Assembly (NCBI GenBank): GCA_050946935.1
Contig: JBMNVR010000006.1
Span: forward strand, 22,691-86,690
Direction: 5' to 3'
Source: Candidatus Howiella sp.
GTDB lineage: Bacteria > Bacillota > Clostridia > Oscillospirales > Acutalibacteraceae
DNA length: 64,000 nt
Of the stretch, positions 9,229-61,934 are shown one piece after another. The notes beneath the pieces are model-generated. The model was given only the letters and a program-made list of their open reading frames with translations. It was not told the DNA's origin and did not search any database. Numbering within the stretch: position 1 is the first letter of the stretch; each line of letters starts with the position of its first letter. Position numbers and translations under genes: made by a program.

Positions 9229-9827
9229 TCCGCCACCTCCGCCGCAGCCGACCGCACGGCCGACAGCACAATTTCAAAATAATCGTTGCCATAGTTGTGA
9301 AATTCCCCGTCGCGCACCATCTGTTCCAACGCCGCGGGGGCAATCCACCGTGCCTCAGCCACCTCCGATTTCTGGAGGATAAGCTGATCCAGCGACACGT
9401 TGGCCCGCGCCAGCCAGACGTCGACGAAAGAATTTTTGCGGGTCAGCCGCCGGATCAGCGAAATTTCCCGATCCGAGACGGGAATGCCCATCTCTTCAAA
9501 CAGCTCGCGCTTGGCCGCCTGTAAAGAGGTCTCCCCCGAAATGGCGGCACCGCCAATGGCTGCCCACTCGCCCGGCATCAGTTCCTTGTCATCCGCCCGG
9601 CGCTGGATCATCAGACGCCCGTCGGGTGTCAGCACCCAGATGTGCACAACCAGATGATATTCGCCGGGGGCAAGACGCACGTTTCCCCGGAGAACCGTTT
9701 TTCCAGTATTCTTTCCCGTTTCGTCGAGTATATCCCAGCGTTCCACCGGCCTCACATCCTTTGCAGGCAAGATTAAAACATTTCTATAAAATATATCATA
9801 CTGTATTTTACAGAAAAAGGCAACCAA
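9225..9827 (-). CDS. NUDIX hydrolase
   Basis: Nudix box GGAAISGETSLQAAKRELFEEMGI. The true start is probably internal (GTG/ATG near 9780). The stop overlaps the start of the zinc-ribbon gene (ATGA). Confidence 0.7.
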   Translation of the reverse strand: MVAFFCKIQYDIFYRNVLILPAKDVRPVERWDILDETGKNTGKTVLRGNVRLAPGEYHLVVHIWVLTPDGRLMIQRRADDKELMPGEWAAIGGAAISGETSLQAAKRELFEEMGIPVSDREISLIRRLTRKNSFVDVWLARANVSLDQLILQKSEVAEARWIAPAALEQMVRDGEFHNYGNDYFEIVLSAVRSAAAEVAD

Positions 9828-9832
9828 TCCGA

Positions 9833-10519
9833 CTATCTTTTTTCGACAATCTCACCCTGGTTTTTATAAATACAGCCGGCCGGGACAACTCCCCGGACCG
9901 AGGATAAGGGATAGATATTCGAATGCCGTCCGATCACCGTCCCGGGATTGAGGACCGAGCCGCAGCCGACCTCCACAAAATCGCCAAGGATGGCTCCCAT
10001 CTTTTTCAGGCCGGTTTCGATCCGCTCCCCCTGGCAGCAAACCGTGACCAGCGTCTTGTCCGACTTGACGTTGGAGGTAATCGACCCCGCCCCCATGTGC
10101 GAACGATAACCCAACACCGCGTCCCCGACATAATTATAGTGCGGCGCCTGCACACAGTCGAAGAGGAGGGCGTTCTTCAGTTCGGTCGAGTTGCCAACCA
10201 CGCTGCCCTTGCCGATCAGCACATTGCCGCGGATAAAGGCGCAGTGACGCACCTCAGCCTCATGGTCAATGATGCAGGGCCCGGCGATATAGGCCGAATC
10301 AAATACAACCGCGTCCCGTGCGATCCAGACATCCTCCCCCCGGCGCGCATACTCCGCCTCGGGCAGAGAGGCCCCCAGCACCCTGATGTATTCGCCAAGG
10401 CGGGGCAGTACCTCCCACACGTTGGAGACTCCGTCGAAAAGACCGGCGGCGATGGTTTTGGAAAGATCGAACAAAGCGTCCGGTGCAAAAAAGTGCATTC
10501 TGATTTTCTCCTTTTTCAT
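9833..10519 (-). CDS. Left-handed beta-helix (hexapeptide-repeat) protein, GlmU C-terminal-like acetyltransferase
   Basis: Start MKKEKIRMHFF at 10519. Hexapeptide repeats such as IGKGSVVGNSTELKNALLFD and YVGDAVLGYRSHMGAGSITSN. The upstream part of the track ORF (to 10720) overlaps the end of hisF and is not coding. Confidence 0.6.
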   Translation of the reverse strand: MKKEKIRMHFFAPDALFDLSKTIAAGLFDGVSNVWEVLPRLGEYIRVLGASLPEAEYARRGEDVWIARDAVVFDSAYIAGPCIIDHEAEVRHCAFIRGNVLIGKGSVVGNSTELKNALLFDCVQAPHYNYVGDAVLGYRSHMGAGSITSNVKSDKTLVTVCCQGERIETGLKKMGAILGDFVEVGCGSVLNPGTVIGRHSNIYPLSSVRGVVPAGCIYKNQGEIVEKR

Positions 10520-10571
10520 AAAATCGCATGAAACCACACGGCGACGGCGCTCTCCCGCACCGCGGAAAGCA

Positions 10572-11330
10572 TTATAATCGAACCGGGATTCCCTCGCCTT
10601 GCAGATAGTGTTTAAGCTCCATAATCCCAAGCTCCTTAAAATGGAACAAAGAGGCGGCCAGCGCCGCATCGGCCTTACCCCTCGTAAAGGCGTCGCGGAA
10701 ATGGGATTTGTCCCCTGCACCGCCGCTCGCGATGACCGGCACGCCGACGCTTTCGCTTACGGCGCGGGTCAGCGCAAGGTCATAGCCCTTTTTCTGTCCG
10801 TCCTCGTCCATGCTGGTGAGGAGAATCTCCCCCGCACCGCGGAGGACCCCCTCCTTCGCCCATTTGACGGCATCCAGACCGGTCGGGACGCGGCCGCCGT
10901 TCACATAAACCTCAAAACCGCCGTCCTCCCGCCGCTTCGCGTCGATGGCAAGCACCACGCACTGGCTGCCGAATTTATAGGCCGCCTCGTCGATCAGGCC
11001 GGGGTTCTTCACCGCCGCCGAATTGACCGAAACCTTGTCCGCGCCCGCCCGCAGCAGAGCGGTGAAATCCTCCACCTCGCTGATGCCGCCGCCGACCGTA
11101 AAGGGGATGAAGATCGACTCCGCCACCCCGGTCACCACGTCAAGAATGGTCTTGCGCGCCTCATGCGAGGCGGTGATGTCAAGCAGCACCAGCTCGTCCG
11201 CGCCGCTTTCGTAATACGCACGGGCGCAGGCGACCGGATCTCCCGCGTCGATCAGATTGACAAAGCTGACCCCCTTGACCACACGCCCGTTTTTGATATC
11301 CAGGCAGGGGATGATTCGTTTGGCAAGCAT
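10572..11330 (-). CDS. hisF: Imidazole glycerol phosphate synthase cyclase subunit (HisF family)
   Basis: [34 protein letters not shown] is the canonical HisF sequence. Start ATG at 11330. Confidence 0.85.
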
Positions 11331-11334
11331 GCAC

Positions 11335-11967
11335 TCAGCCCTCCCTTCCGGCGGCGCAAACCTCGGCAAACGCCTTTAAAATTTGCAGGCCGTCTTCGCC
11401 ACTTTTTTCGGGATGGAACTGACAGGCCGAGATGTTCCCCCGCTCAACTGCGGCGTCAACCGGCACGCCGTACCGGGTTGTAGCGGCCACAACCGACCTA
11501 TCCTGTGCATCCAAATAAAAGGAATGGACAAAGTAGGCGTACATATCTGCCGGCACATAGCGGAAAATCCCGTCTTTTTTCAAAATTTCCAGCCGGTTCC
11601 AGCCGATGTGCGGCACCTTAAGCCCCAGGTCGGAGGGGAACCGCCGGAAGCCGCCCCGGAAAATTCCAAGGCCGCGCACGCCGGGACTCTCCTCACTATA
11701 CTCGAACAGCAGCTGCAGACCGAGGCAGATACCCAGCAGCGGACGGCCGGCCACCGCGTGGGCGCGAAGAAGCTGGCAGAAGCCCCGCTCTTCCAACTGG
11801 TGCATAGCATCGCCGAAAGCGCCCACGCCGGGCAAAATCAGACCGTCTGCTGCCCCGTCCAACTGGCTGCCGGCGGAATACACCCTCCACGACAGGCCGA
11901 GGCGGGTCAGCGCGTTCTCCACACTTTTGAGGTTCCCAGCCCCATAATCAATAATTCCGATTTCCAT
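11335..11967 (-). CDS. hisH: Imidazole glycerol phosphate synthase glutamine amidotransferase subunit (HisH family)
   Basis: [38 protein letters not shown] is a class-I GATase triad. Start ATG at 11967. hisF follows 4 nt later. Confidence 0.85.
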
Positions 11968-12155
11968 TTTCACATTCCCCCGACGCGGTGGAGCGGCGCG
12001 GCTGTTTTGCACATGGCTGAAGCGCCCCTGCCTTTATCCGCGCACAGCGGCGAAACCGCATGGCAATAAAAAATTTAATACACATATTCTATCAAAAAAC
12101 CAACGGTTTCACAACCGTTTTGGAAAAGAAAATCGGAAAGAAACCGAAAAAACGG

Positions 12156-12184
12156 TTGCGAAGCCATATAAAATCGGTTATAAT
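12156..12184 (+). promoter_or_regulatory. Sigma-A-type promoter (TTGCGA-17-TATAAT) driving the SRP RNA
   Basis: TTGCGA at 12156-12161, a 17-nt spacer, TATAAT at 12179-12184. Confidence 0.5.
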
Positions 12185-12191
12185 AGTTCGA

Positions 12192-12395
12192 GCAACGGAG
12201 CTTTTCGCTGCAATGTGATACAGAGCCAGAACATACCTTCGGGCGTGCAAACGGGCGGGTCCTGCGCGACGGGACGCCGCGAACCATGTCAGGCGGGGAA
12301 CCGAGCAGCATTAAGGGGCACTCCCCGTGCGCCGCAGATTGCCTGTCCGTTTGCACTCCCAAGGGTATGTACCGCCGTTTGGCGGCGGCTCTGTA
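12192..12395 (+). ncRNA. ffs: Signal recognition particle RNA (long Bacillus-type scRNA/ffs)
   Basis: GGGTCCTGCGCGACGGG..GAACCATGTCAGGCGGGGAACCGAGCAGCATTAAGG..GTGCGCCGCAGATTGCCTG is near-identical to the B. subtilis scRNA domain IV region. GTGCAAACGG (12245-12254) pairs with CCGTTTGCAC (12345-12354). A terminator hairpin ACCGCCG-TTT-GGCGGCGG plus a T-run follows at ~12362-12395. The gene lies immediately upstream of dnaX, as in Bacillus. The 5' boundary is approximate. Confidence 0.75.
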
Positions 12396-12550
12396 TTTTT
12401 ATCTTTTAAAAAAAGCGACCGGATGCCGGGACGTTTTTCCACCGGAGAAAACCCCTCTTAAAGCGCCGGGGCGCTTTTCTCCGCACGATTCCGACCGGAA
12501 CAAATGCTCCGGACAACAGCCCCGTTTTTTCAGAAAGGCGGTCGATTCAT

Positions 12551-14281
12551 TTGTATCAGGCTCTTTACCGCAAATACCGGCCCCGCACCTTTTCGGACGT
12601 ATACGGGCAGGCGCATATTACCGAGACGCTGAAAAACCAGCTCAAGGCCGGCCGGATTTTCCACGCCTACCTCTTCACCGGGTCGCGCGGTACCGGAAAA
12701 ACCACCTGCGCCAAGATTTTGGCAAAGGCGGCCTGCTGCGCCCACCCGCAGGATGGGGAACCCTGCAACGCGTGCGAGTTCTGCCGCGGCGTGGATGATG
12801 GCAGCCTGCTCGACGTGCTGGAGATTGACGCCGCCTCCAATAACGGTGTGGACGACATCCGCGACCTTCGGGAGAAGGCAGTCTACACCCCCAGCGCGGC
12901 CAAATACCGGGTCTACATTATCGACGAGGTACATATGCTCTCGAGCGGAGCTTTCAACGCCCTGCTCAAAACGCTGGAGGAACCTCCGGCTCACGTCATT
13001 TTCATTCTCGCCACGACCGAGGTACACAAGCTGCCGGCTACCATTCTCTCCCGCTGCCAGCGGTTCGACTTCCACCGCATTACCCCCGAGCTGATCGCCA
13101 GGCGGGTGCGGTTCGTCTGTGAGGCGGAGGAGTTGTCGATCACCGACGGCGCCGCCCGGCTGATTGCCTCACTCGCCGATGGCGGAATGCGGGATGCCCT
13201 TTCGATCCTCGACCTGTGCATCGGCGACGGGGGAGAGATTACCGAGCAAACCGTCGCCGACATCTGCGGCCTCGCCGGACGGGAGTATTTGCTTTCTTTC
13301 GTCGAGGCGCTGCGCGCAGGCGATATATCGGCCGCACTTGAATTGATCGGCCGGCTGCACGCCGACTCGGTCGACATGCTCCGCCTGTGTGAGGAGGTCA
13401 TTGCTGAGCTGCGCAACCTGATGCTGCTCAAAACCCTCCGCGCGCCAGAGGAACTGATTGTCTGCTCGTCGGAGGAGCTGGAGGCCCTGCGCACCGCGGC
13501 CGAAGCGTGGACGCTGGACGAGGTGGTTTACGCCCTCTCGGTATTTGAGGAAGCGCTGGCCAAAATGGGAAGGGGCAGCCGGCGCACCGCCCTCGAAATG
13601 GCGGTGGTTAAATTCTGTACACCGGCGCTGAACAGCTCAGCGGCCGGGCTGACCGCCCGGCTGGCCGCTTTGGAGCGGGCGGTCAAAACTGGTCTTTTCC
13701 CGGACGGAGGCAAAGCATCCTCCCCCCGGACAGAGGCGGCCGCGTCTGAGAAACCGGTTCCGCCCACACACGGGACAGAGCATCTGTCACCCAAGCCCGT
13801 GCCCCCGGTCGCGTCGCAGACACAGCCGGCTGCGCAGAACCCGGACGATCCTGACGACCTCCCCCCGTGGGAGGATGGAGCGGCCGCGCCCCCCGCGGGG
13901 CAGACAGCGCTGCCCGGGAAGGAGGAACCCTCGCTTCCCGAACCGCCCCCCGCGGCCGAAGAAACCTCTCCCGCGCCGGTCGGCAGCCTCCCCCAATGGA
14001 GCGAGATACTCGGCATCATCGCCAAAACCTGTCCGCTCATGCACGGGGTACTGCAAGGATCGACCGCTTATCTGGAGGGGGATCTCCTCCTGATCGACTG
14101 CGAAAACAGCCAGTTCCGCGACCTTGTCAACAGCGAAAACACAATGTACAAGGATTCCATCCGCAACGCCACGCTGGAGATTCTGGGCAAGCGGTGCCGG
14201 CTCGGCCCCTATAACCGAAAAAAACAGCCGAAGGATCCGCTGGACGAGCTGCTCCACAAGGCGGAAAATCTCGGCCTGTAA
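12551..14281 (+). CDS. dnaX: DNA polymerase III subunit gamma/tau
   Basis: MYQALYRKYRPRTFSDVYGQAHITETLKNQLKAGRIFHAYLFTGSRGTGKTTCAKILA is a clamp-loader AAA+ signature. A Pro/Ala-rich linker precedes the C-terminal domain. Confidence 0.9.
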   Translation: MYQALYRKYRPRTFSDVYGQAHITETLKNQLKAGRIFHAYLFTGSRGTGKTTCAKILAKAACCAHPQDGEPCNACEFCRGVDDGSLLDVLEIDAASNNGVDDIRDLREKAVYTPSAAKYRVYIIDEVHMLSSGAFNALLKTLEEPPAHVIFILATTEVHKLPATILSRCQRFDFHRITPELIARRVRFVCEAEELSITDGAARLIASLADGGMRDALSILDLCIGDGGEITEQTVADICGLAGREYLLSFVEALRAGDISAALELIGRLHADSVDMLRLCEEVIAELRNLMLLKTLRAPEELIVCSSEELEALRTAAEAWTLDEVVYALSVFEEALAKMGRGSRRTALEMAVVKFCTPALNSSAAGLTARLAALERAVKTGLFPDGGKASSPRTEAAASEKPVPPTHGTEHLSPKPVPPVASQTQPAAQNPDDPDDLPPWEDGAAAPPAGQTALPGKEEPSLPEPPPAAEETSPAPVGSLPQWSEILGIIAKTCPLMHGVLQGSTAYLEGDLLLIDCENSQFRDLVNSENTMYKDSIRNATLEILGKRCRLGPYNRKKQPKDPLDELLHKAENLGL

Positions 14282-18584: not shown

Positions 18585-18625
18585 AAAAGCAGCCTCCTGA
18601 AAAATCAGGAGGCTGCTTTTCGTTA
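18585..18625. terminator. Bidirectional Rho-independent terminator downstream of the 18675..22517 gene
   Basis: AAAAGCAGCCTCCTGA-AAAAT-CAGGAGGCTGCTTTT is a perfect palindrome with T-runs on both sides. Confidence 0.55.
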
Positions 18626-41848: not shown

Positions 41849-43924
41849 CTATAGCCCCAGTTCCATCCGGCGCATAATATGAGCCTGAAACTCCGGATCC
41901 AACTCGACAAAATAGCCGCTCCACCCCCATACCCGCACGATCAGGTTGCGATAGTTCTCGGGATGGCGTTGCGCATCCTCCAGCGTCTCGCGATTGACCG
42001 TGTTGAGCTGAAGCTGATGTCCGCCCGAGTCGATAAAAAATTTGACCAGCGCGCCAACCTTGGCCACGCTCCCCTCCCCCCGGAAGACCGAATCATGCAG
42101 CTCGATGGTCAACGGCCCGCCGTTCATTGCGCGTCTCAGGTCCTGCCGCGCAAAAGAACGGATGATCGAAACCGGGCCGGGACACTCGCTGAACAGGCTG
42201 GGGGAGAAATTGGCCGCCAGCGGCTCGTCCTTCCGGCGGCCGTCGGGGGTCGCGGGCAAGCCCTCTCCATAATAAATATAATACATCGCCGTGCCTGTTC
42301 CGGCGCGGAAAATGCCGCCCCGGTCGTTGCGCCGTCCCTCCAGCGCATCGGCAAAGGCATCGAGCAGCGTGCCGGCAATCCCGTCGGTGAGATCGTCGCC
42401 CTGTCCCATCTTGGGCGCGCGGTAGCGCAGTTTGTTCAACAGGCGGTCATATCCTTCAAAATTCTTTTTCAACGCGTCGATCAGCTCCGCTTTTCCAACC
42501 GAGCCGTCGCCGAACACATACCGCCGGATGTTTCCCAGTGAGTCGGCCGCCGTCGCCAGGCCGCAGCCGTGAAAACCGTAATTGTTGTACCGTCCCCCGC
42601 GGGAGATGTCACCGTACTCTTCCGCCGGCTGCATCATCAGGGAAACAAAAGGCGCCGGCCGGATGTAGAGGCGCCGCACCTTTTCACACAGCGCATTGAC
42701 CTGCCCGGTGATCCGGCGGACGACCGCGGCGAAAAAGGCGTCGTAATCCGCCGCCCCCTCCAGCTCGGCAAAGACCGCCTCCTCTACCGCGAGGGGGAAA
42801 GAAACCGCGCCGATATTCGGCACATCCATCGCCTTTTCGGGAATGATAAACTCCCAGCAGGCGGCGACAACGTAGTTGTAAGCATCCTCTTTGGCATAGC
42901 CCCAGTCCAACAGCGCGGGGATTACCGCGTCATCGTTGGAATACTGCGGGAATCCGGTGCCGCAGCGGGTCAACTCGGACCCTAAGCTATACACCTCCGC
43001 CGGGGTGTTTTTATGCACCCGAAGATTGATCTTCGGGTCGATCAGATGCAGTTCCAGACTGGCCTTGAGACAAAGCTCACTGAGCAGATTATAGCTGTCT
43101 CTGCCGTCCGGGTGCAGCCCGCCGAGCACCATGCTCTGCCCGTTGTCTCCCTGTTGAACGCCGGGGTACAGGTCGCTGTCCCGGTTGAAAGTGAGGAAAA
43201 ATTCCTCCACCAGCTCGAGTGCTGTGTCGTAGGTATAAAGGCCGGCCGCCATATCCTTTTCAAAATACGGAGCCATGTACTGATCAAACCGGCCGACCGT
43301 ATTGTGCCAGTTGGCCGAAAGCCAGAGGGTATAATGAATAATCCGGAACATCTGCAAAGCTTCGAGAAAGCTTTCCGGAGGATATTCCGGCACCCGGGCA
43401 AGCGTTTTCGCCACCGTGTCGTTGCCGACCCGCTCAGCCTCCGCCCGGTAGCGGCCGGCCAACGCCATAACCTCCTCCAGTATCGCGATTTGAAAACCGA
43501 GATAGTCGGCCTTCTCCGCCCGGCCGTCGGCAAGATATTCTGCCTGCTTCCGGGACAGTCGCTCGCACATGCCGGCAAAGCCAACCGACATCAGAGCCGC
43601 ATAATTCGGGCTGATGTTGCTAACGTCCCCCCGCTCGTGTATATAGTGGGTTTTGCGGATTTCCTCCCACTCCTCCGGCGTGTGTAACTCGGGGATGACC
43701 GGTATTGTGCGGAGAAAGGCAATCCGCTCCTCCGGGAAAACCACCGGCTTTTCCTCCCGCAGCATAAGGCAGAGGCGCCGCGCCGCCCGCTCCTCATCCG
43801 AAAAACCCTGCGCGCAAAATTCCCGCGCGAGGGCGTACGGATCACTGATCGGCGTCCGGCGCAAGGCGCGATGGGATTGCTCCACCACAAAGAAGCGGCG
43901 TAGATTTTCAATTCGTTCGATCAT
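41849..43924 (-). CDS. Glycyl radical enzyme (PFL-like family, eliminase-type C-x-E active-site loop), 691 aa
   Basis: C-terminal glycyl radical motif LIVRVWGWSGYFVEL. Putative thiyl loop VVAACWEFIIPE (Cys-x-Glu, as in GRE dehydratases/lyases). The start overlaps the activase stop (ATGA). Confidence 0.85.
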   Translation of the reverse strand: MIERIENLRRFFVVEQSHRALRRTPISDPYALAREFCAQGFSDEERAARRLCLMLREEKPVVFPEERIAFLRTIPVIPELHTPEEWEEIRKTHYIHERGDVSNISPNYAALMSVGFAGMCERLSRKQAEYLADGRAEKADYLGFQIAILEEVMALAGRYRAEAERVGNDTVAKTLARVPEYPPESFLEALQMFRIIHYTLWLSANWHNTVGRFDQYMAPYFEKDMAAGLYTYDTALELVEEFFLTFNRDSDLYPGVQQGDNGQSMVLGGLHPDGRDSYNLLSELCLKASLELHLIDPKINLRVHKNTPAEVYSLGSELTRCGTGFPQYSNDDAVIPALLDWGYAKEDAYNYVVAACWEFIIPEKAMDVPNIGAVSFPLAVEEAVFAELEGAADYDAFFAAVVRRITGQVNALCEKVRRLYIRPAPFVSLMMQPAEEYGDISRGGRYNNYGFHGCGLATAADSLGNIRRYVFGDGSVGKAELIDALKKNFEGYDRLLNKLRYRAPKMGQGDDLTDGIAGTLLDAFADALEGRRNDRGGIFRAGTGTAMYYIYYGEGLPATPDGRRKDEPLAANFSPSLFSECPGPVSIIRSFARQDLRRAMNGGPLTIELHDSVFRGEGSVAKVGALVKFFIDSGGHQLQLNTVNRETLEDAQRHPENYRNLIVRVWGWSGYFVELDPEFQAHIMRRMELGL

Positions 43925-44775
43925 AAAACCACGCTCCTGATTGCGTATTTTGAAAAGGCGGCAAACGCCGTCCTCGGCGTCCGGGCGGTATCGAACCCCG
44001 GCGCGTATTTCCGTCCAAGCATCGGATATTTCGCCGCTGCCGCCCGATTATAGGGCAACAGCTCAACCCGGTCGAGATGTCCCATTCCTCCCTCCGCCAA
44101 AAAGGCGGCCGTATGTTCCATATTCTCCTCCGTATCGTTGACACCGGGAATCAGCGGAATACGGATGCAGTAAGGCAGTCCGCTGCGCTTCAACAACCGG
44201 ATGTTGTCGAGAATCCCCTTGTTTGTCCGGCCGGTATAGCGCTCATGCACCGCGCTGTCGAAGATTTTCAGATCGGCGAAAATATATTCAACACGGGAGA
44301 GCAGAGCCTCAAACACCTCCGGTGCCGCGCAGCAGGAGGTTTCGACCGCCCGATGGATCCCGGAAAGGCGGTCGAGCGTCTCAAACAAAAAGGCGGGCTG
44401 CATCAGCGGCTCCCCGCCCGAGAAGGTCACCCCCCCGCCCGACGCGGTATAAAAGCCGGCGTTTTTCCGCAGCCGGCCGGCCAGCTCGGCCGAGGTCAGC
44501 CGCTCTCCCACGATTTTGCGCAGACCATTCGGACAGACCTCGGTACACACGCCGCAGGCCGTGCAGCCCTCCGGACTCGGGCAGACCGCCCGGCAGCGGC
44601 CGCACCCGGTGCAGGAGGCAGTGCGCACCATCAGCTCCGGCTGTGTACGCTGTCCCTCGGGGTTGTGGCACCAGGTACAGCGCAACGGACATCCCTTCAA
44701 AAAAGCGGTCGCCCGAACACCCGGCCCGTCATGCACCGTAAATTCCGATATATTGATCAGTGTACCGGTTTCCAC
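43921..44775 (-). CDS. Glycyl-radical enzyme activating protein (radical SAM, with auxiliary ferredoxin-like cluster domain)
   Basis: CPLRCTWCHNPEG is a CxxxCxxC radical-SAM motif. Extra Cys clusters: CTGCGRCRAVCPSPEGCTACGVCTEVCP. GTG start at 44775 with RBS GGGAGAG. Confidence 0.85.
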   Translation of the reverse strand: METGTLINISEFTVHDGPGVRATAFLKGCPLRCTWCHNPEGQRTQPELMVRTASCTGCGRCRAVCPSPEGCTACGVCTEVCPNGLRKIVGERLTSAELAGRLRKNAGFYTASGGGVTFSGGEPLMQPAFLFETLDRLSGIHRAVETSCCAAPEVFEALLSRVEYIFADLKIFDSAVHERYTGRTNKGILDNIRLLKRSGLPYCIRIPLIPGVNDTEENMEHTAAFLAEGGMGHLDRVELLPYNRAAAAKYPMLGRKYAPGFDTARTPRTAFAAFSKYAIRSVVL

Positions 44776-44805
44776 TGGGCATCTCTCCCTTTTGTTGAGG
44801 CTACA

Positions 44806-44860
44806 TTATCGTTAACCTTAACGTTAATGTAATGATACTATATTTTGATAAATTTGTCAA
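44806..44860 (-). promoter_or_regulatory. Near-consensus sigma-A promoter (TTGACA-17-TATCAT) with overlapping 24-bp double-palindrome operator ATTAACGTTAAGGTTAACGATAAT, upstream of the activase/GRE operon
   Basis: Minus-strand reading: TTGACAaatttatcaaaatatagTATCATtacATTAACGTTAAGGTTAACGATAATgtagcc. An almost identical arrangement occurs at 61879-61934. Confidence 0.55.
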
Positions 44861-45311
44861 GAGGGAGGCGAAAAAAACACAGTGGACGATCTGGCAGACC
44901 TCCCGAAAGAGGGAGGATTTATATATGTTGCAGAATGTGGGCACGGCAGTTTCAGAAAAAACAGGAAGTGAATGATCTGCCGTCCACATTATTTTCCCGA
45001 CGGTACGGTACAGAATAAAACGGACGGGGAAGCACATTCCCATCATAAGGGATGTACATCACGCCGCAGAGAGCGGAGCGAAAGGAAATCGGAAAGCCGA
45101 GAGTCTAAGAGAGGGATGTCCCCCCCTGGTCGTTCCGGAGGGAATTATTAAGAGGAGCCCAGAGCCTTGCGTTAAGTAAGAAGTTTGAAGGTTTATGTTC
45201 AAACACCAAGGCTTTGTATTTCCTATAGTCCAAGGGCAAAAAATTAATCTTTATCCGGGTTTATTTTTGTTGTAACTTGAACACGCTGAATCCAAGTCAA
45301 CTTACAGCAAA

Positions 45312-45355
45312 GTATAAGCCTTTCCGCGGCATCAGCAGAAAGGCTTATACTTGAC
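45312..45355. repeat. Palindromic hairpin carrying the AGTATAAGCCTTTC(C/T)GC motif, just downstream of the GH38 gene
   Basis: AAGTATAAGCCTTTCCGCGGCATCAGCAGAAAGGCTTATACTT. The same motif occurs in direct copies at 35951 and 36054. Confidence 0.45.
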
Positions 45356-45389
45356 TACGAGTTTATTTCGGCTCCGCATATTTACCCCG

Positions 45390-47801
45390 TCAAATAGGAT
45401 TGGTAAAAGAAGCAAAGCCCAAAATGGATCCGTTCAAAGCGCGCAGCTTCCGGAAAACCTCTTCCGCAGGCCGCGGGCCGTCCAGGGTCAGAGAATAGTG
45501 ATACTCATGGAACCCGGCCAGGCTCACCTTAAAGTTGGTCTCCCAGAAATTGTTCATCACCCAAGCATAGATTTCATCCAAATTCTCCGCACCCGGTTCC
45601 CCGCACAGCCGAATCTCATGGGCGGGCAGAGGCCCCATGGTGACCAGCGGCGTATCGGGCAGGCCGATGGTCAGGGTGGCATTTGCCGAGGACAGGCAGA
45701 GGCCGTTTTGCACCGCATAAAAATCAGTACAGGTACCGGGCAACTGATCCACGCGCGGACGGAAAACGCACCCGGTCTTATCCATCCACAGGGTCTCCTC
45801 CTCCCCGGTGGTAAACGGCAGGGCGAGATATACGTTCTCCGGATCCCACACACAGTCCTTCTGAAAGCGCAGCGCCAGATCTATGCGGGGCATATGCTTA
45901 TACGCGGTCAGGATCAGATAACAGAATTGGCAGCCCTCCAGCGCATACTGTAGCTGCACGCGGGAGAAAAGAGGCCCGTCCGCCAACACCTTTGCGCCGC
46001 AGCATACGCCGGCCGAGCGTTTTGTGGCCGAAGACTTGCGATTCCGTCCCATCTCCCGCCGGACGCCGCAGGGATCACCGTTGCCCGGCGTAACCTCATA
46101 GATCGGGGTAAAGGCGGCATATTCTCCGGGTTTTATCAGTTCTTTTCCCCGCGCCTTATCCCAGAGGGAAACAATCCCCCGCTGATCGTATTGAATATGG
46201 AAAAATTCGTTCTCCAGCCGGTACGGCGTGACCACCGACCCCGTTTCCAGCCGGCGCTGGAAGGTGGAATACAGATCATATACCCCTTCAATACCCCTGT
46301 CCGCCCGGCGGCCGGAGGATATAGGTGCGGGCGTCTCAGTCTCCCGAATGCCGTATTCTCTCTGCTCGCCCGGCTCCAGCCGAACCAGAATGTTCAGCTC
46401 CACCCCCCGGGCATAAGAACTGAGCTGATACGGAACCGGGCGGCCGGTAGCCGTATCTACAATTTCAAAATGAGTATGGCCGGCCAAACTCTCGGAATTG
46501 ATCCGCATCACGTCGGTCACCGGTACATCGTGGGGATTTACAGCCCGGAAAACCGGCTCGTTCTGCATGGAATAAGGCGTGGCACCCCGGGAATAGGCGA
46601 TTTTGTCCAGCGCCCGCGAAGCCGACTCGTTGGCCTTCAGAGCATAGAGGCTCTTGCGCAGATCCAAATTATTCACACAGGTATTCCACGGCTCGGACAC
46701 TGAAGAGCAGTAGCCCCAGGTATGCTCGGCGTAAAACATCAGGTTATAGGCCGTGTCGTCCAGCAGCTCTTTTCCGCAGATTTCCCCCTCTGGATCCAGC
46801 CGGCGCGCCATCTCATACTTGCGCTCGGCCTCCCGATAGTGCTGCACCACATTGGGCGTGGAGCCCACCCCGTCGGCCCACCAGTCGGTCCAATCCCCCC
46901 GGTAGGTGGGAATATCCCCGCAAGAGTCCTCCACCGCGTCGAAAAATTCATCCAGCGTGGCCATTTGCAGCCGAATTTCCTCCCCGTGCAGCGCATTGTA
47001 CCGGTTGACAAATTCCACCGCGCCCACATAAGGCGAACCGTTGTCGGTCTGACGGCTGGAATAGGTGACGGGCGCCAAATCATAGGGATGGCCCTGCTTC
47101 TTCAGTGTGTCTACATAAGTGGCTATGCGGATTTCAGCCTTGTGGAAAGGCTCCAGGCCGGCGCCGTCCAATCCGTCCTGGATGGTATATTCAAAGGATT
47201 GTACCGGCGCGACGCCCAGCTCGTTGCCCAAATGATAGTGCTCACCCACCCAGGAAAGCAGGCGATTGCCCTTGGGGCTCTCCCAATAAAAAGGGGTCTG
47301 CTTTTGAAACAGAGGATGATAGCCGTGATGGGTATGAATGCAGGAAAGCAGGCGGGTGACGCCGTTTTCATACAGCGCGTCGGCAAAACCCCAGCCGTAG
47401 CCGTTAACGTCGGCCGTCATAGCCGAACGCATCAAAAGGCCGTGCGCCTCCATTCCGGCCGCCGAACGGCGCACGGCGTCCGACAGCACGTCGTAGGAAA
47501 TCAGGTCAGTGAGGTTCAGATAGCTGCCGGACAGGCCGATCTCACCGGATTTCACAAAACGGATAAAATCCTCCCTCTCCCGGAGATCGGCAAGCTCAAA
47601 GAACTTCTCCACACACCAGAAGCTTTCGCAGTTCCACTTAAAGCCCAGCCATTCCGGCCGATCACTGTGGGCCTGACGCAGAATCCGAATCGCCTCCTGA
47701 ATATACTGTACCTGATGCAGCTCAATCTTTTCCTGATAATCGGTATAGCCGATATCGGTGTGGCTGTGATGAATCAAATATAAAGTAAAAGGCTTGGGCA
47801 T
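45390..47801 (-). CDS. Glycoside hydrolase family 38-like (alpha-mannosidase-type) cytoplasmic enzyme
   Basis: Start ATG at 47801 with RBS GGAGGAAAACAAT. N-terminal LYLIHHSHTDIGYTD resembles the GH38 metal-binding HxHxD motif. ~800 aa with no signal peptide. Family assignment is by motif resemblance only. Confidence 0.6.
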   Translation of the reverse strand: MPKPFTLYLIHHSHTDIGYTDYQEKIELHQVQYIQEAIRILRQAHSDRPEWLGFKWNCESFWCVEKFFELADLREREDFIRFVKSGEIGLSGSYLNLTDLISYDVLSDAVRRSAAGMEAHGLLMRSAMTADVNGYGWGFADALYENGVTRLLSCIHTHHGYHPLFQKQTPFYWESPKGNRLLSWVGEHYHLGNELGVAPVQSFEYTIQDGLDGAGLEPFHKAEIRIATYVDTLKKQGHPYDLAPVTYSSRQTDNGSPYVGAVEFVNRYNALHGEEIRLQMATLDEFFDAVEDSCGDIPTYRGDWTDWWADGVGSTPNVVQHYREAERKYEMARRLDPEGEICGKELLDDTAYNLMFYAEHTWGYCSSVSEPWNTCVNNLDLRKSLYALKANESASRALDKIAYSRGATPYSMQNEPVFRAVNPHDVPVTDVMRINSESLAGHTHFEIVDTATGRPVPYQLSSYARGVELNILVRLEPGEQREYGIRETETPAPISSGRRADRGIEGVYDLYSTFQRRLETGSVVTPYRLENEFFHIQYDQRGIVSLWDKARGKELIKPGEYAAFTPIYEVTPGNGDPCGVRREMGRNRKSSATKRSAGVCCGAKVLADGPLFSRVQLQYALEGCQFCYLILTAYKHMPRIDLALRFQKDCVWDPENVYLALPFTTGEEETLWMDKTGCVFRPRVDQLPGTCTDFYAVQNGLCLSSANATLTIGLPDTPLVTMGPLPAHEIRLCGEPGAENLDEIYAWVMNNFWETNFKVSLAGFHEYHYSLTLDGPRPAEEVFRKLRALNGSILGFASFTNPI

Positions 47802-50841: not shown

Positions 50842-51339
50842 GGTGTCACTTCCTTTTTGGATTGCCGTTTTAAATGGTTTCCCTTTCGGCGATTTTATAA
50901 TACTATACCCATAAGAAAAATTTGCATACTTTTTGCGTATAAACTGTAAATAAATTAAGAACAAGCAAAACCGACACCGTGCGACAATCGTAACGATGCA
51001 AAACACAGGCTTGGGTCCGTCGGCCGCGCGGGATACGCCCTCCGCCGCAGCCCGCGCGCCGTCCGACAGCAACCGAGCCAAAACCGAAAGCGTCCCGGGC
51101 TGCGTTCGGTATTTGTACAACTTTTTTAAAATATCGCAGCACACCAGTGTCAAATCATCTTTTGACGAGATATTTCGCGCCCCGCATGTCATGATTTTAC
51201 AATATTTTTAGGACAAATGCGAAAAAATTCTTTACAATTTCCTTTTGTACATGCTATAATAAAGCCATCGTCGGCAGACAAAATCATTTGCACATCTTGG
51301 CCTGTCTGCTCCCGACAGTCTATGGTAGGAGGTTTCGGT

Positions 51340-52359
51340 ATGGTATATGACCTGTACGATAAAAAGCTGCTGACCGAGCCGGGATATTACCCTGTCATTC
51401 AATCCTATTATTATAATGAGTGGAACACCTACGACATGCCGCAGCATTTCCACAGCCGGATTGAAATCATGTATATTATTAAAGGAGACTGCACCGTCCG
51501 TTCAAGGAAAGAAAAAATTCGCATGTTTTCGGGCGATTTTATCCTGATTAACGCCGGTACGCCGCACGCCCTCTCGATCAGCAATCCGCGCGGCTGCATG
51601 GTGCTGAACATCGAATTCACCTTTGAAAAGCAGGACAACGCCGCGCCGGATTTTGCAACCCTCTATCGCAACAGCGAGGAAATGCGCAATTTTCTCGAAC
51701 AGGGATCGGAATACTTTCGGATCAAGGACGATGGAGAGGTGTACCGCATCCTTTTCTCCGCGCTGGAAAACGTCGATATTACCAAACCCAACCGGTTTGC
51801 CCTCGACCTGTGGCTGTCGCTGCTGCTCCTCTCTTCCGCGAGGCTGGCCTGTGCCGATCTCAACAACGACTCGGATGATTACATACAGTGTGCGAAAGAT
51901 TTTATCTCCCGCAACTATTTCCGGGAAATCCACATCAGCGACATTGCCGAATATATCCATATTCACCCTGCGTATTTACAGCGTCTGTTTAAAAAGGAAT
52001 GCGGCATCTCGGTGATCGACTACATGACCAACTACCGGATGGAGAAGGCTTACTACCTGCTCTCCCGCACCAATATGTCGATCATCGACATTGCCAACAG
52101 CGTCGGCATCAATTCGCAGCAATATTTCACCCGCCTGTTCAAAAAGACCATGAACATCACGCCCAAGGCGCTGCGCGACAGCAAAGCGTCGGACAATCCT
52201 CTCGCGGATCCGATCGACAACGATGTCGAGTGGACCTGGCGTCCGGGTCTGAAAAACACCGAAACCATCTGCGACAATGACCTCGACTGGCTGAACATTA
52301 TCTCCAGCGGCAAGCTGCCGGGAGATGCCCGGGGCTATAAAAAGCCGTCGGAGCAATAA
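51340..52359 (+). CDS. AraC-family transcriptional regulator (cupin N-domain plus AraC HTH)
   Basis: ATG at 51340 with RBS TAGGAGG. FHSRIEIMYIIKGD (cupin). Dual HTH ..DIAEYIHIHPAYLQRLFKKECGISVIDYMTNYRMEKAYYLL..IANSVGINSQQYFTRLFKK. Confidence 0.8.
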   Translation: MVYDLYDKKLLTEPGYYPVIQSYYYNEWNTYDMPQHFHSRIEIMYIIKGDCTVRSRKEKIRMFSGDFILINAGTPHALSISNPRGCMVLNIEFTFEKQDNAAPDFATLYRNSEEMRNFLEQGSEYFRIKDDGEVYRILFSALENVDITKPNRFALDLWLSLLLLSSARLACADLNNDSDDYIQCAKDFISRNYFREIHISDIAEYIHIHPAYLQRLFKKECGISVIDYMTNYRMEKAYYLLSRTNMSIIDIANSVGINSQQYFTRLFKKTMNITPKALRDSKASDNPLADPIDNDVEWTWRPGLKNTETICDNDLDWLNIISSGKLPGDARGYKKPSEQ

Positions 52360-56531: not shown

Positions 56532-57101
56532 TTATTTTCCGATTGCATACCGCCTGATCAGCCGGTCGGCGCGCACCTTGACCAAGGCGGAGGCATAGTA
56601 GATTAAAATAATCTTCATCCCCCGCGTCAGTTTTTCCCGTGCGCCGGGAAACGGCTCGACATAATCCGCAATCGTATCGGCAATTTTTTGCTCGAGCGAT
56701 TTTTCATCGAACACCGTCTCATAGTCGATTGTATCCAACAGATCACAGGTATATATATACAGCTTTGCCTCCGGAATAATGTCATCATCGGTACAATTGG
56801 CGGTGCCGTTGATGTATTCTAAAATATTGGCGATGTTTTCAAGGCTCGTCACCTCCCGCAGCATGTTGATAAGCATGATCCGGGTCAGATGATTGACCGA
56901 GTACCGTTTCTCCACGGGGCGGCCTACCCAGCCGCGGTTGATCCAGTTCTGAATCACCGGCGTTTCCAGCCCGGTAATCTCCCGCACCTGCTGCAGCATG
57001 ATGCCGCGGGTTGCAAAAAACAGGCCGGAGAGAAATTCCTCCGCCGTGCGGCCCCTCCTTTCAAGAACAGTGCCGGGGAACTTCGGCTCCATTCCGATCA
57101 C
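56532..57101 (-). CDS. Hypothetical protein with predicted HTH segment (DUF1836-like, tentative)
   Basis: 189 aa. IMLQQVREITGLETPVIQNWINRGWV looks like an HTH. It is the first gene of the nfeD-flotillin cluster. Confidence 0.4.
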   Translation of the reverse strand: MIGMEPKFPGTVLERRGRTAEEFLSGLFFATRGIMLQQVREITGLETPVIQNWINRGWVGRPVEKRYSVNHLTRIMLINMLREVTSLENIANILEYINGTANCTDDDIIPEAKLYIYTCDLLDTIDYETVFDEKSLEQKIADTIADYVEPFPGAREKLTRGMKIILIYYASALVKVRADRLIRRYAIGK

Positions 57102-58417: not shown

Positions 58418-61400
58418 TTAACCGGCCACGATCATTTTCCGCAGATCGACCACATCGCTGACCGTCAGAAGCTTATCCTTGTTGATGTCGCCGGCCGCCA
58501 TCTGCTGCGCCGTCTGGCTGCCGCTGACAATGATCTGGCGCAGTTCCACCACATCCGAGACGGTCACCGAACCATCACCGTCCAGATCGCCCAGTTTGAC
58601 GTCGGGTGCCTTCTCCCCCCGGACGAGGGTGACAACGCTGACCGAGTAGCCTTCGGTCGCAATGACGATACCACCCGCATTCATGGTGAACGCAGAGGTC
58701 TCCGCCGCCTGCGGCACGATATTCTCCGGATTCTCCGACGTATTGGTGTCCTTCAGCCCGGCCGTGTAGGTCTGTGCCGTCCGGCTGACCGTATAACCGG
58801 CGAACTCCGGAATCGCAATGCCGAGGTTTTTCGCCTCGCCCGTGCGGTTGACAATCTTGACACAGACGGTGCCGCCGTCCTCCGATCCGGTGAGGGTTAC
58901 ATCGAAATTTTGGGTGTTCACAATATCCAGGCCCTCTGCCGTCAGCAGATAAGGCTGGTGCGCCCCGCCAAAGAGAATATCCATATACGCCGGCGCCTGA
59001 TACCACGCACTGTCGTTGTCCATGAAAATAAGGCCCTGATCCCAGCCGTTGTCGTTGTGGCCGTCTACCTGCAGGCAGTTGGCCGAGCAAACGATCGGGA
59101 TGATGTCGCTGATACGCTCGGCATTATTGATCGCAAAAGCGTTGCAAAGCGCCCGTTCAAAATCGTGAGATGCCGCGTTCAGCTCGAACACCGGGAAGGC
59201 AAATTCCGCGTCAGGACAGATCGACCGCAGCGCGTCGTAGAGACTGATCGCCGCATGGATAAAGCTATAGGGCTGGGTGCCGTTCTCCGACCAGAAGTGA
59301 ATGTCAAACCAAACCGGCATACCATGCGCAACCGCGTTGTCGAGGATGGTTTTGTGATTGGCCAGAGTGGTAAGCCCGGACGCCGATCCGGTGAAGTTGT
59401 AAGGATCGGTGATGATATCCTTGTAATCAAAGTCGCCGGCAATCAGTGTAATATCGGTATCCAGCGCCCACACGGCGTTGGCGATCGCATTGAAACGCTC
59501 GGCAAAGGCCGCGTCAATCCGCTCTTCATTGCCGATCTGGAGGTAAGGCAGGTCATACGGCTCCTCCCTGCCCATCGAAATGCGAAGCTGAACCCACTCG
59601 TTAGAGGGATCGGTGCCCGTCGCGAACTGGATGAAGTCAGCCATATCCTCCGGCGACTCATAGCTGTTGAAATCGGGAACCGCCGCTACGCCCAGCGCAT
59701 CGCAGAGATCGAGGAACTCAATAATTCCAAAGCCGAAGGAGGAGTAGGTGTACCACCAGCCTCTATAGGTCCGGCGCTCCTCAGGCGCGCCGACCATATC
59801 CTTCCACCGGTACTCACTCGCGTTAGCCATACAGCCGCCGAACCGAAGAACCGTAATGCCCTGATTTTCCAAAAGCTCACCGACATCCTTGCGAACCGAC
59901 AGACCTTTATACCGTCCCCACTCGCCCGGCTGCAAGAAGACGTAGCCGAGGTCGAGGGTTCCGGGCTGTGCAATCTCAATCACAAGCTGCCCGGCGGTGT
60001 CGCCGCCGTCCGGCGTCAGGGCGAAGCTGTATTTGCTCCAGTCGCCCGAAACCGACACTTTCTCCTTTGCATAAACGGTCGCGCCGTCCGCGCTGACAAA
60101 AGAAACATAAGCGTCTATGGCCGTATCGGACTTGGCGTAGAAATAGCCCTCATAATCCTTGCCGTCGACAATATTCATCCCCTTGCGGTTGAGGCCCTTG
60201 TTGCTGATGCCGATCGTTCCCTCGCCGCCGGTCATGGTGATGCGCTGGCTCTGCCCATCCTTGAACGCATTCTCTGAGAAGAGGTCGAGCGTCCCTTCGG
60301 CCGAACCGGTCACCACGCCTCTCCACATGCCGGAGACCTTCAGATCAGCACGATAGGTCGGGATTTCCACCGTTTGCTCCGCGCCGCTGTCAGCCGTGTA
60401 CTTGATATTTTTAAACTTGGCGGTCGAGTTCCAGGCGCGCAGACCCGAAAGGCCGGTGCTGATCGGATTGGAATCGGTATAAGAGGCCGCCTTGTTCCCG
60501 TCGACATATACGGTTATGCTGTTTTCGGTCATGTCCACCCGCAAATTGATCCAACGACCTGCCGCAACCGCCGCACAGGGCGTGTCGCCGAGGTTGTTGT
60601 AATTATACTGATGCTTGGCAATACGCACCGCGCCGCCGCTGAGGAGCGAAATCTCATACCCGTTAAAGCTGTCGGCACCCGGCTTGGCGTCGCTGGTTTT
60701 CACGATAAAGCCGGCGGCCTCCCCGTCGAACCAGACGTCGGCCGAGAAACTGCCGCTGGTGCATTCGGAATCGTTGACAGTCAGCTTCGGTCCGTCCGAT
60801 TCCCGGTTAATATATATCAATTTCTCTTCGCCGGAGTCGTCGGTCATCCACTGTCCCGCCGCAACCGTGAAGGCCGATTCAAATTCGACCTGATTCGGTT
60901 CGGCAAAGCTCTCTCCGAAAATCATCTGAGACCAGATGCCGCCGTACAGCTCGTGGTTCACGTCCTCCATACAGGCGCCATACAGCAGGTCCGAAACCTC
61001 CCCGGCCTTTTCGGACGCCGCAACCTCCAGCGCGTAGTCCACACCGTACCGTCCGCTGGCAGGCGCCGACACAGCGTTGCCTTTCGCATCCTGCACCACG
61101 GCGGTATACAAATAGTCTTTTTCTTCACTCAGCACGTCTTCAACCTCCCAAATATTCTGACCGGCCGGTCGGGCCGCTTCAAACGTATCGACAAGATTGC
61201 CGTCCAGATCGCGTTTCTCCAGCACAAGGACAAGGGGGGCGTCGCTGTCACACAAAAGGTGAGCAGCCGCCTTCTCGCCCGTTTCGGAGTAAGTCAGCGA
61301 AACCGCCGCCTCATATTCCGGCAGGAAAAGATTTTCCGCCGGCACCAGCGTTTTGTCCATGCCGGTCGTCTGCCAGTAGAGCGAAAGCCCGCCGCCGCCG

Positions 61401-61834
61401 TATCCGTTATAATATTCAATCACAAGGCTGTAAAACCGACCGGCCTCCATCTCATACCAGCCGGTCGTGTTGGTCGCCCCGTGCGGCCCGGGATCACTGA
61501 TAATCTGCTTGCCGTCGATCAAGACCTTGACCCCGTCGTCGGCACTGGTCGTAAATATGTAGGAGCCGCTTGTCGGAGCCTGAATCCGCCCGGTCCAGCG
61601 GATCGAATAATGCTCGGCCGGAACACCGGCCATGGGCGAACCGCTCCATTCAAAATGGATCTGCTCAGATACCCCGCCGGTCACATAGGTCTCAAACCCG
61701 GTGCCGCTGTAATACTCGGCCCAAAGGCCGGTCTCCACCGTTTCCTCAGCCGATACGGGAATCCACATTCCAAGCAAAAGCAGGGAAACAATCCCCAGAG
61801 AAAGAATACGGCACAATACATTCTTTTTTAGCAT
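58418..61834 (-). CDS. Secreted cellulosomal-type enzyme: signal peptide, PA14 domain, LamG/concanavalin-like domain, clan GH-A TIM-barrel glycoside hydrolase (GH51/GH39/GH79-like), C-terminal type-I dockerin
   Basis: Start MLKKNVLCRILSLGIVSLLLLGMWIPVSA at 61834 with RBS GGGAGGA. PA14: GLWAEYYSGTGF..YSIRWTGRIQAPTSGSYIF..DDGVKVLIDGKQI. GH-A motifs: VLRFGGCMANASEYRW and LQIGNEER. Dockerin: LGDLDGDGSVTVSDVVELRQIIV..AGDINKDKLLTVSDVVDLRKMIV. Confidence 0.8.
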   Translation of the reverse strand: MLKKNVLCRILSLGIVSLLLLGMWIPVSAEETVETGLWAEYYSGTGFETYVTGGVSEQIHFEWSGSPMAGVPAEHYSIRWTGRIQAPTSGSYIFTTSADDGVKVLIDGKQIISDPGPHGATNTTGWYEMEAGRFYSLVIEYYNGYGGGGLSLYWQTTGMDKTLVPAENLFLPEYEAAVSLTYSETGEKAAAHLLCDSDAPLVLVLEKRDLDGNLVDTFEAARPAGQNIWEVEDVLSEEKDYLYTAVVQDAKGNAVSAPASGRYGVDYALEVAASEKAGEVSDLLYGACMEDVNHELYGGIWSQMIFGESFAEPNQVEFESAFTVAAGQWMTDDSGEEKLIYINRESDGPKLTVNDSECTSGSFSADVWFDGEAAGFIVKTSDAKPGADSFNGYEISLLSGGAVRIAKHQYNYNNLGDTPCAAVAAGRWINLRVDMTENSITVYVDGNKAASYTDSNPISTGLSGLRAWNSTAKFKNIKYTADSGAEQTVEIPTYRADLKVSGMWRGVVTGSAEGTLDLFSENAFKDGQSQRITMTGGEGTIGISNKGLNRKGMNIVDGKDYEGYFYAKSDTAIDAYVSFVSADGATVYAKEKVSVSGDWSKYSFALTPDGGDTAGQLVIEIAQPGTLDLGYVFLQPGEWGRYKGLSVRKDVGELLENQGITVLRFGGCMANASEYRWKDMVGAPEERRTYRGWWYTYSSFGFGIIEFLDLCDALGVAAVPDFNSYESPEDMADFIQFATGTDPSNEWVQLRISMGREEPYDLPYLQIGNEERIDAAFAERFNAIANAVWALDTDITLIAGDFDYKDIITDPYNFTGSASGLTTLANHKTILDNAVAHGMPVWFDIHFWSENGTQPYSFIHAAISLYDALRSICPDAEFAFPVFELNAASHDFERALCNAFAINNAERISDIIPIVCSANCLQVDGHNDNGWDQGLIFMDNDSAWYQAPAYMDILFGGAHQPYLLTAEGLDIVNTQNFDVTLTGSEDGGTVCVKIVNRTGEAKNLGIAIPEFAGYTVSRTAQTYTAGLKDTNTSENPENIVPQAAETSAFTMNAGGIVIATEGYSVSVVTLVRGEKAPDVKLGDLDGDGSVTVSDVVELRQIIVSGSQTAQQMAAGDINKDKLLTVSDVVDLRKMIVAG

Positions 61835-61878
61835 ACAGTCCATCCTCCCGGAAGTTTTGGCCACAAACCGCAGCAAAC

Positions 61879-61934
61879 ATTAACGTTAACATTAACGTTA
61901 ATCATACTATAACATCGAATCAACAAAATGTCAA
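61879..61934 (-). promoter_or_regulatory. Near-consensus sigma-A promoter (TTGACA-17-TATAGT) followed by tandem ATTAACGTTAA(C/T) palindromes, upstream of the dockerin enzyme gene
   Basis: Minus-strand reading: TTGACAttttgttgattcgatgtTATAGTatgATTAACGTTAATGTTAACGTTAATgtttgc. Same architecture as 44806-44860. Confidence 0.55.

Follow-up and report, generated by a model that had tools for sequence, protein, structure and literature searches.

In a 64-kb stretch of the genome of Candidatus Howiella sp. (hereafter the window), the same combination of a promoter and a palindromic element precedes two unlinked operons, one encoding a glycyl radical enzyme (GRE) and its activase, the other a secreted enzyme that carries a dockerin. 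What kind of regulator would recognize this element, and why would a glycyl radical pathway and an extracellular hydrolase share it?

Two promoters in the window carry the same tandem palindrome

Direct reading of the sequence reveals a promoter followed by a 24-bp element at both sites, each on the minus strand. At site A, upstream of the GRE operon, the -35 hexamer TTGACA (44855..44860) is separated by a 17-nt spacer from the -10 hexamer TATCAT (44832..44837); after the trinucleotide tac, and thus 3 nt beyond the -10 hexamer, comes the element ATTAACGTTAAGGTTAACGATAAT (44805..44828), and 29 nt lie between its end and the GTG start codon of the activase gene at 44775. Site B has the same layout: the -35 hexamer TTGACA (61929..61934), a 17-nt spacer, the -10 hexamer TATAGT (61906..61911) with a TG upstream of it, the trinucleotide atg and, again 3 nt after the -10 hexamer, the element ATTAACGTTAATGTTAACGTTAAT (61879..61902), whose end is 44 nt from the ATG of the dockerin enzyme at 61834. 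Relative to the start codons, the element spans -53 to -30 at site A and -68 to -45 at site B. A promoter consensus scan likewise finds both promoters, which are near-consensus sigma-70 promoters with 11 of 12 hexamer matches apiece.

The two 24-mers are identical at 22 of 24 positions, confirming the common promoter-operator architecture on two unlinked operons that a preliminary description of this DNA had proposed. The spacers between the -35 and -10 hexamers and the leaders, on the other hand, show no sequence relationship between the two sites; the likeness is therefore limited to functional elements and does not reflect a recent duplication. Against the 54.7% G+C of the window, the 24-bp element stands out as A+T-rich.

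The element consists of two 12-bp palindromes, ATTAWCGWTAAY, with CG at each center. The units are ATTAACGTTAAG and GTTAACGATAAT at site A, where the symmetry extends over a 30-bp palindrome (TACATTAACG...ATAATGTA, 44802-44831), and ATTAACGTTAAT and GTTAACGTTAAT at site B. The preliminary description had seen two 10-bp palindromes per site; the tandem palindromes are indeed present, but at site A the second 10-mer (TTAACGATAA) is imperfect.

This arrangement is rare in the surrounding DNA. In the 64-kb window, 0.02 occurrences of the tandem pattern are expected and two are present. Allowing up to one mismatch, the 10-mer TTAACGTTAA has six matches in the window, every one of them within sites A and B, compared to 1.18 expected, and none of 100 shuffled sequences attains six. 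A position-weight scan found no further strong 12-bp unit, and hence no additional regulon members, in the window; the weak matches at 18616, 20718, and 54961 score at the level of shuffled sequence and were rejected. With only two tandem sites in 64 kb, the motif is not the dispersed or random repeat that the preliminary description had considered as a possible objection. A literature search for the string TTAACGTTAA returned primers and unrelated sequences only.

The genes behind the two sites

The first gene of the site A operon (43921..44775, minus strand) encodes a GRE activase of 284 amino acids with a GTG start; it has the Pfam domains Radical_SAM and Fer4_12 and scores 272 bits against NCBIfam TIGR02494, exceeding the cutoff. 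The start of the GRE gene (41849..43924, minus strand) overlaps the activase stop. The GRE itself, 691 amino acids long, belongs to an uncharacterized subfamily of the PFL2/dehydratase type: a Cys356-x-Glu358 loop and the glycine motif RVWG667W are both retained, the structures closest to it in the PDB are those of diol dehydratase, glycerol dehydratase, PflD, and HypD (E-values of about 1e-69; 1.5e-68 for PflD), and it falls far below all NCBIfam equivalog cutoffs. At E<=1e-50 its homologues fill 6603 database clusters, most of them with 58-64% identity, and the subfamily includes the cultured Hungatella and Clostridiaceae NSJ-31.

Site B is predicted to control a secreted dockerin enzyme of 1138 amino acids (58418..61834, minus strand), which comprises a signal peptide, a PA14 domain, a DUF1080/3-keto-disaccharide-hydrolase-like domain, CBM4_9, a GH51-like catalytic region of the arabinofuranosidase type, and a type I dockerin, with Pfam as the evidence for its domains. 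A database protein (P0121) whose name assigns it to a 'Candidatus Howiella sp.' MAG matches it with 100% identity. The true start is the ATG at 61834, which has GGGAGGA upstream and agrees with both the 1138-residue database protein and the orthologue in a congener (L080). The TTG at 61876 that a mechanical list of open reading frames gives as the start of this gene was rejected; it lies inside the element.

No LacI-family gene was found in the 64-kb window by tblastn. The regulators that the window does encode are two AraC genes (3224-4171 and 51217-52359) and a MerR-like gene (56532-57101), none of which adjoins site A or site B, so that the preliminary description was right to report no cognate regulator gene next to either site. 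Elsewhere in the window, at 12253-12351 on the plus strand, lies a bacterial small SRP RNA (Rfam RF00169, 64.9 bits).

The element is conserved at orthologous activase-GRE operons

The promoter-operator unit is present upstream of the orthologous activase-GRE operon in seven further lineages whose GREs are 49-88% identical to that of the window. The layout is constant: TTGACA, a 17-nt spacer, TAnnnT, a gap of 3-8 nt (usually 3), ATTAWCG..., and then the activase gene or, in L133 (GRE 49% identical), the order LacI-GRE-activase. A Howiella relative (L120, GRE 88% identical) has the operator ATTATCGTTAACCTTAACGTTAAT; Hungatella effluvii (L121/L126, 60%) has ATTAACGATAACATTAACGTTAAT; L122 (60%) has a single unit, ACATTAACGATAATGT, of 16 nt; Clostridiaceae NSJ-31 (L123-125, 64%) has three units; L127/128 (59%) has ATTAACGATAACGTTAACGTTAAT; and a Lachnospiraceae lineage (L019) has ATTAACGTTAATGTTAACGTTAAT, the very sequence found at site B. 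In 175 kb of loci retrieved by protein homology, 20 of 20 strong units sit in these intergenic promoter regions. The element is thus not missing from orthologous operons, the second objection that had been foreseen, and its conservation here and at orthologues of the dockerin enzyme (see below) argues for the repressor operator over +1 that was originally proposed.

The general unit of the element is the 12-bp sequence ATTAWC|GWTAAY, degenerate for A/T at +/-2 and for R/Y at +/-6, and it is lengthened to 16-18 bp by an outer ACA/TGT. Across lineages, arrays contain one, two, or three units in strict 12-bp phase, with a center-to-center distance of 12 bp in all tandem sites.

Downstream of the GRE operon, the synteny of rpsT, gpr, and spoIIP is common to the window and the Howiella relative L120. 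At the upstream boundary of the promoter-operator-activase-GRE module, a comparison of 44860-45390 of the window with 7546-9150 of L120 shows a GH38 gene as the neighbor in the former and ypeB in the latter; with the downstream synteny kept and the upstream neighbor different, the module has been rearranged as a unit.

Beginning 3 nt past the -10 hexamer, the array would span roughly -4 to +20 relative to the start of the transcript. It might in principle act in the RNA, as a 5'-terminal stem-loop from about +1 that stabilizes the mRNA or modulates translation with no repressor involved. Site A does fold, at -13.4 kcal/mol with a z-score of -2.9, as does the Hungatella site L121 at -10.6 kcal/mol with a z-score of -4.7, but any DNA palindrome folds in this way; site B folds no better than its shuffles (z-score -1.25) and the single-unit site of L122 does not fold at all (z-score 0.1). 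In 12 of 13 tandem sites at the homology-derived loci there are uncompensated A/T changes at +/-2, and it is the primary sequence, not the pairing, that is conserved across phyla. Sites A and B have no Rfam match, and neither a match to an RNA family nor compensatory change marks the element as a structured 5' leader. Finally, in an uncultured member of the Oscillospiraceae (L094) the tandem element abuts the -35 hexamer of a LacI promoter, from which it would therefore not be transcribed. We regard action at the RNA level as very unlikely.

When 185,579 representative genomes were scanned for the pattern alone, at least 118 loci were recovered, and the matches listed fall into two classes. 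The first class, rumen Bacteroidales hexamer microsatellites of the form (TTAACC/TTAACG/GGGAAC)n, is irrelevant to the operator. The second consists of isolated 24-mers directly after a sigma-70-like -10 hexamer, and among the matches listed these occur in Firmicutes, Atribacterota, KSB1, Spirochaetes, and Actinobacteria. About half of the matches listed are satellites in MAGs of Prevotella and other Bacteroidales, often several per genome, which raises the question of whether sites A and B could themselves be a hexamer microsatellite, (TTAACG/TTAACC)n, that plays no part in regulation. We give this idea almost no credence: the flanks in the window are unique sequence into which no repeats run, there are no further copies in the window, the number of units is not variable but fixed at two in the congeners L080 and L120, and across families the element keeps its place with respect to the -10 hexamer. 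The microsatellites themselves are intergenic arrays of (TTAACC)n, (TTAACG)n, and (GGGAAC)n, for example L002, L031, L047, and L069 in Prevotella, Bacteroidales, and Paludibacteraceae MAGs, and they dominate a naive genome-wide search for the operator pattern.

The element has the features of a LacI-type operator

Operators of the LacI family are even-length palindromes of 16-22 nt with a central CG pair; even palindromes with a central CG are recognized by 1173 of 1303 LacI-family transcription factors, and more than 75% of the sites lie 30-140 bp upstream of the start (PMC4052901). The element is an even palindrome with CG at its center, and both site A and site B lie at such a position relative to their start codons. 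Overlapping LacI-family sites about 13 bp apart occur at 110 operons, E. coli GntR at gntKU being one example, an arrangement that is recognized but unexplained (PMC4052901). The tandem units described here, 12 bp apart and conserved within an orthologous group, conform to it. Judged by its sequence features, the element is a LacI-type operator, ordinary in kind, and the family of its regulator can be named as LacI.

The closest parallels are the operators of local LacI sugar repressors (RbsR, E. coli GntR, and the PurR type), which are likewise even palindromes with a central CG. The parallel extends to the regulator genes, which have operators of their own, as in the relatives' loci described below, and to the regulons, which combine a transporter with catabolic enzymes and glycoside hydrolases, as here; the double sites of GntR at gntKU, overlapping and about 13 bp apart, resemble our tandem units. 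There are also differences. The half-site here is ATTAAC, whereas known local LacI operators have TGnAAnC; the units here, one to three per array, keep strictly to a 12-bp phase; and, unlike in known local LacI systems, the regulator gene in this genome would be unlinked to both targets. A GRE operon is not known as a target of other sugar regulons.

Catabolite repression would offer a different explanation within the same protein family, in which sites A and B are cre elements for CcpA and not part of a dedicated regulon. The two kinds of site share the CG-centered core AACGTT, and cre sites in Firmicutes often lie over or just downstream of the promoter, like sites A and B. The cre consensus is WTGNAANCGNWNNCW, in which the outer TG...CA is defining. 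In an alignment with this consensus made by eye on the CG, the sequence here (CATTAACGTTAATG) lacks the outer TG...CA as well as the A at position 4, and this is true of four of four units in the window. Only two sites occur in 64 kb despite several other genes for carbohydrate-active enzymes, and relatives have dedicated local LacI genes beside the operator, with operator units of their own; the sites are few and tied to a dedicated local regulator, whereas cre is tied to a global regulon. A role as cre elements is extremely unlikely, bearing out the earlier statement that the motif is not cre, though the cre regulator does share the LacI family.

LacI-family genes accompany the operator in relatives

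In five lineages (L019, L122, L123-125, L127/128, and L133) the gene immediately upstream of the operon encodes a LacI-family protein. The proteins are 46-67% identical among themselves and thus form one orthologous group, with the helix-turn-helix TL(K/R)DIAxxTG(Y/F)S(I/V)NTVS(R/H)AL. In four of the five lineages an operator unit is found upstream of the LacI gene itself (the unit in L122 is weak and has no central CG), which suggests from sequence that the GRE-linked LacI genes are autoregulated; autoregulation is found in 72% of LacI-family regulators (PMC4052901). Within 10 kb of the operon, no adjacent LacI gene is present in Hungatella (L121/L126) or the Howiella relative L120. The clusters that do hold a LacI gene encode an ABC importer of the CUT2 (ribose) type whose binding-protein gene has a three-unit array (2960-2995 in L122 and 14740-14775 in L123), and the cluster in L127 also encodes an aldose 1-epimerase (mutarotase).

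The association extends beyond GRE operons. Among the scan matches listed, at least 18 loci from several phyla have a LacI gene within the operator's 8-kb tile, mostly directly beside the operator; the co-localization is seen in the five lineages above and at 13 further scan loci, and not in the window. These LacI proteins form three subgroups that are about 35% identical to one another and share the same operator core. The detail of the operator follows the subgroup: CTTAACGTTAAG is found in L094 and L010, and ATTAACGTTAAT in the GRE-linked group and the L023/L081/L099 group.

Could these adjacent LacI genes be coincidental, and the element be the operator of another family, such as XRE, TetR, or the AraC and MerR-like regulators of the window? 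There is no LacI gene near either site in the window, yet there are two AraC genes and one MerR-like gene. These genes neither adjoin the sites nor are conserved beside the operator elsewhere, however, whereas LacI genes flank the operator at the scan loci and in the five GRE lineages and have their own operator units upstream. The even, CG-centered palindrome is a LacI hallmark (PMC4052901), and the operator detail tracks the LacI subgroup. A regulator from outside the LacI family is therefore very unlikely. We conclude instead that the 24-bp element quite probably serves as operator for a local LacI-family repressor that responds to a sugar and is encoded elsewhere in the Candidatus Howiella sp. 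genome.

The uncultured Oscillospiraceae locus mentioned above (L094, 176-5691) encodes a second, unrelated GRE family, with a protein of 749 amino acids that is only 26% identical to the GRE of the window, in the same kind of layout. Here the LacI gene is divergent from a series of genes encoding GRE, activase, and CUT2 binding protein, and the tandem element in the intergenic region is TTAACGTTAAGCTTAACGTTAA.

A probable regulatory link between the GRE operon and a secreted hydrolase

Orthologues of the dockerin enzyme were examined in the same way. The congener L080 (Ruminococcaceae UMGS577), which shows synteny with the window and 77-87% identity at the nucleotide level, has an orthologue of the enzyme that is 84% identical; the spacer between the -35 and -10 hexamers is fully diverged, but the two hexamers are still there, as is the operator. 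Upstream of a more distant orthologue (L129, 54% identical) we find TTGACA, a 17-nt spacer, TATGAT, ttc, and ATTAACGTTAACATTAACGATAAA.

In L133 both kinds of target are found in one cluster (1044-21834), which encodes two paralogous PA14/GH51-like/dockerin enzymes together with LacI, a GRE of 679 amino acids, and the activase. There is one operator before the first hydrolase gene and one before LacI, and genes for a GH78 rhamnosidase and a GH67 alpha-glucuronidase lie upstream. The gene order GRE-activase in this cluster is the reverse of that in the window. In NSJ-31, the LacI-GRE-ABC locus is flanked by giant GH2 and GH43-related enzymes. The regulon joining a glycyl radical operon to a secreted hydrolase, as the preliminary description envisaged, is thus supported by the operators of L080 and L129 and by the single cluster of L133, which argue for a predicted common control.

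The link is frequent but not universal, as seen from L131, where the LacI-type operator is absent from the locus of a dockerin-enzyme orthologue that is 49% identical (8759-13414). There the gene is divergent from an AraC-family gene and lies beside a giant GH2, suggesting that regulation of the dockerin-type enzyme was rewired in this lineage.

A predicted sugar-responsive regulon

How would the repressor work? Given that the array covers the predicted start of transcription, repression by occlusion would be its only plausible action: the bound repressor would block formation of the open complex or escape from the promoter, and an inducing sugar or sugar derivative would bind to the core of the repressor and bring about its release. 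One repressor could in this way co-switch the dockerin-bearing GH51-like enzyme, which would liberate the sugar, and the activase-GRE pair, which would process it in the cell; in relatives, the CUT2 ABC importer and the repressor gene would be under the same control. The sequences show how the sites are built, how rare they are, that orthologous loci conserve them, and that LacI genes adjoin the operator; physical binding, repression, the action of a single regulator at sites A and B, and the nature of the effector are inferred. LacI dimers centered 12 bp apart are expected to overlap sterically, and they may bind alternately or next to each other.

The operator ties a widespread GRE subfamily with no assigned reaction to sugar uptake and glycan degradation. 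It predicts that the GRE is co-induced with a sugar ABC importer, a mutarotase (L127), and secreted GH51-like, GH43-like, or GH2 enzymes. As the GRE shares its operator with an importer and hydrolases, its substrate can be narrowed to a glycan-derived monosaccharide or polyol. Three proteins could be screened for ligands, namely the LacI sensor, the binding protein of the transporter, and the GRE, and the motif is precise enough for rebuilding the regulon in gut and rumen Clostridia.

The only sugar-acting GREs characterized to date, as a 2026 review states, are the YbiW/PflD enzymes of 'anhydroglycolysis' (PMC13450708). Like the operon in the window, the YbiW/PflD loci pair a PFL2-type GRE with an activase in the context of carbohydrate utilization. 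The GRE of the window differs in that it is shorter (691 amino acids) and belongs to a distinct subfamily, and the genes linked to GREs of its type encode a CUT2 ABC importer and glycoside hydrolases that are secreted, whereas YbiW/PflD are linked to a PTS or a kinase. In the literature searched, we found no relevant paper joining a GRE with LacI, with an ABC/CUT2 transporter, or with enzymes of the arabinofuranosidase or furanosidase type. As far as that literature goes, the content of the regulon is new; the operator class and the overlapping arrangement of sites are already known.

Two routes to the substrate were tried and set aside. D-apiose has no specific support: the binding protein of the apiose cluster of E. 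coli SE15 (L135) is 27-28% identical to the GRE-linked binding proteins, and the regulator of that cluster has no annotation beyond 'sugar-binding transcriptional regulator', with no mention of the LacI family. The best PDB matches of the binding protein (4yo7, 2ioy, and 4rsm) include both ribose- and polyol-type binders and are not decisive.

A broader proposal can be made tentatively, as something possible but short of probable. The operator may mark an undescribed anaerobic pathway for a sugar or sugar alcohol, in which a furanosidase-like enzyme, a CUT2 importer, and a GRE all act on one plant-glycan-derived compound that is sensed by a single LacI protein, while the orthologous LacI proteins and operators of Paenibacillaceae would control a non-radical route; on arrays phased at 12 bp, the dimers may pack side by side.

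In the aerobic Paenibacillaceae in question (L074, L097, L101, and L115, from Cohnella and Paenibacillus isolates), the LacI protein is 50-52% identical to the GRE-linked LacI. Here, TTGACA, a 17-nt spacer, a -10 hexamer, and ACATTAACGTTAATGTTAACGTTAATGT precede a three-gene operon (also found in L076, 4047-7712) that encodes an EryC-like TIM barrel, a kinase of the PfkB type, and a FucI-like protein, which has the C-terminal domain of FucI. The EryC-like TIM barrel matches PDB 4k3z, 'D-erythrulose 4-phosphate dehydrogenase', with an E-value of 1.9e-51. This operon may be the non-radical counterpart of the GRE route, acting on a related substrate.
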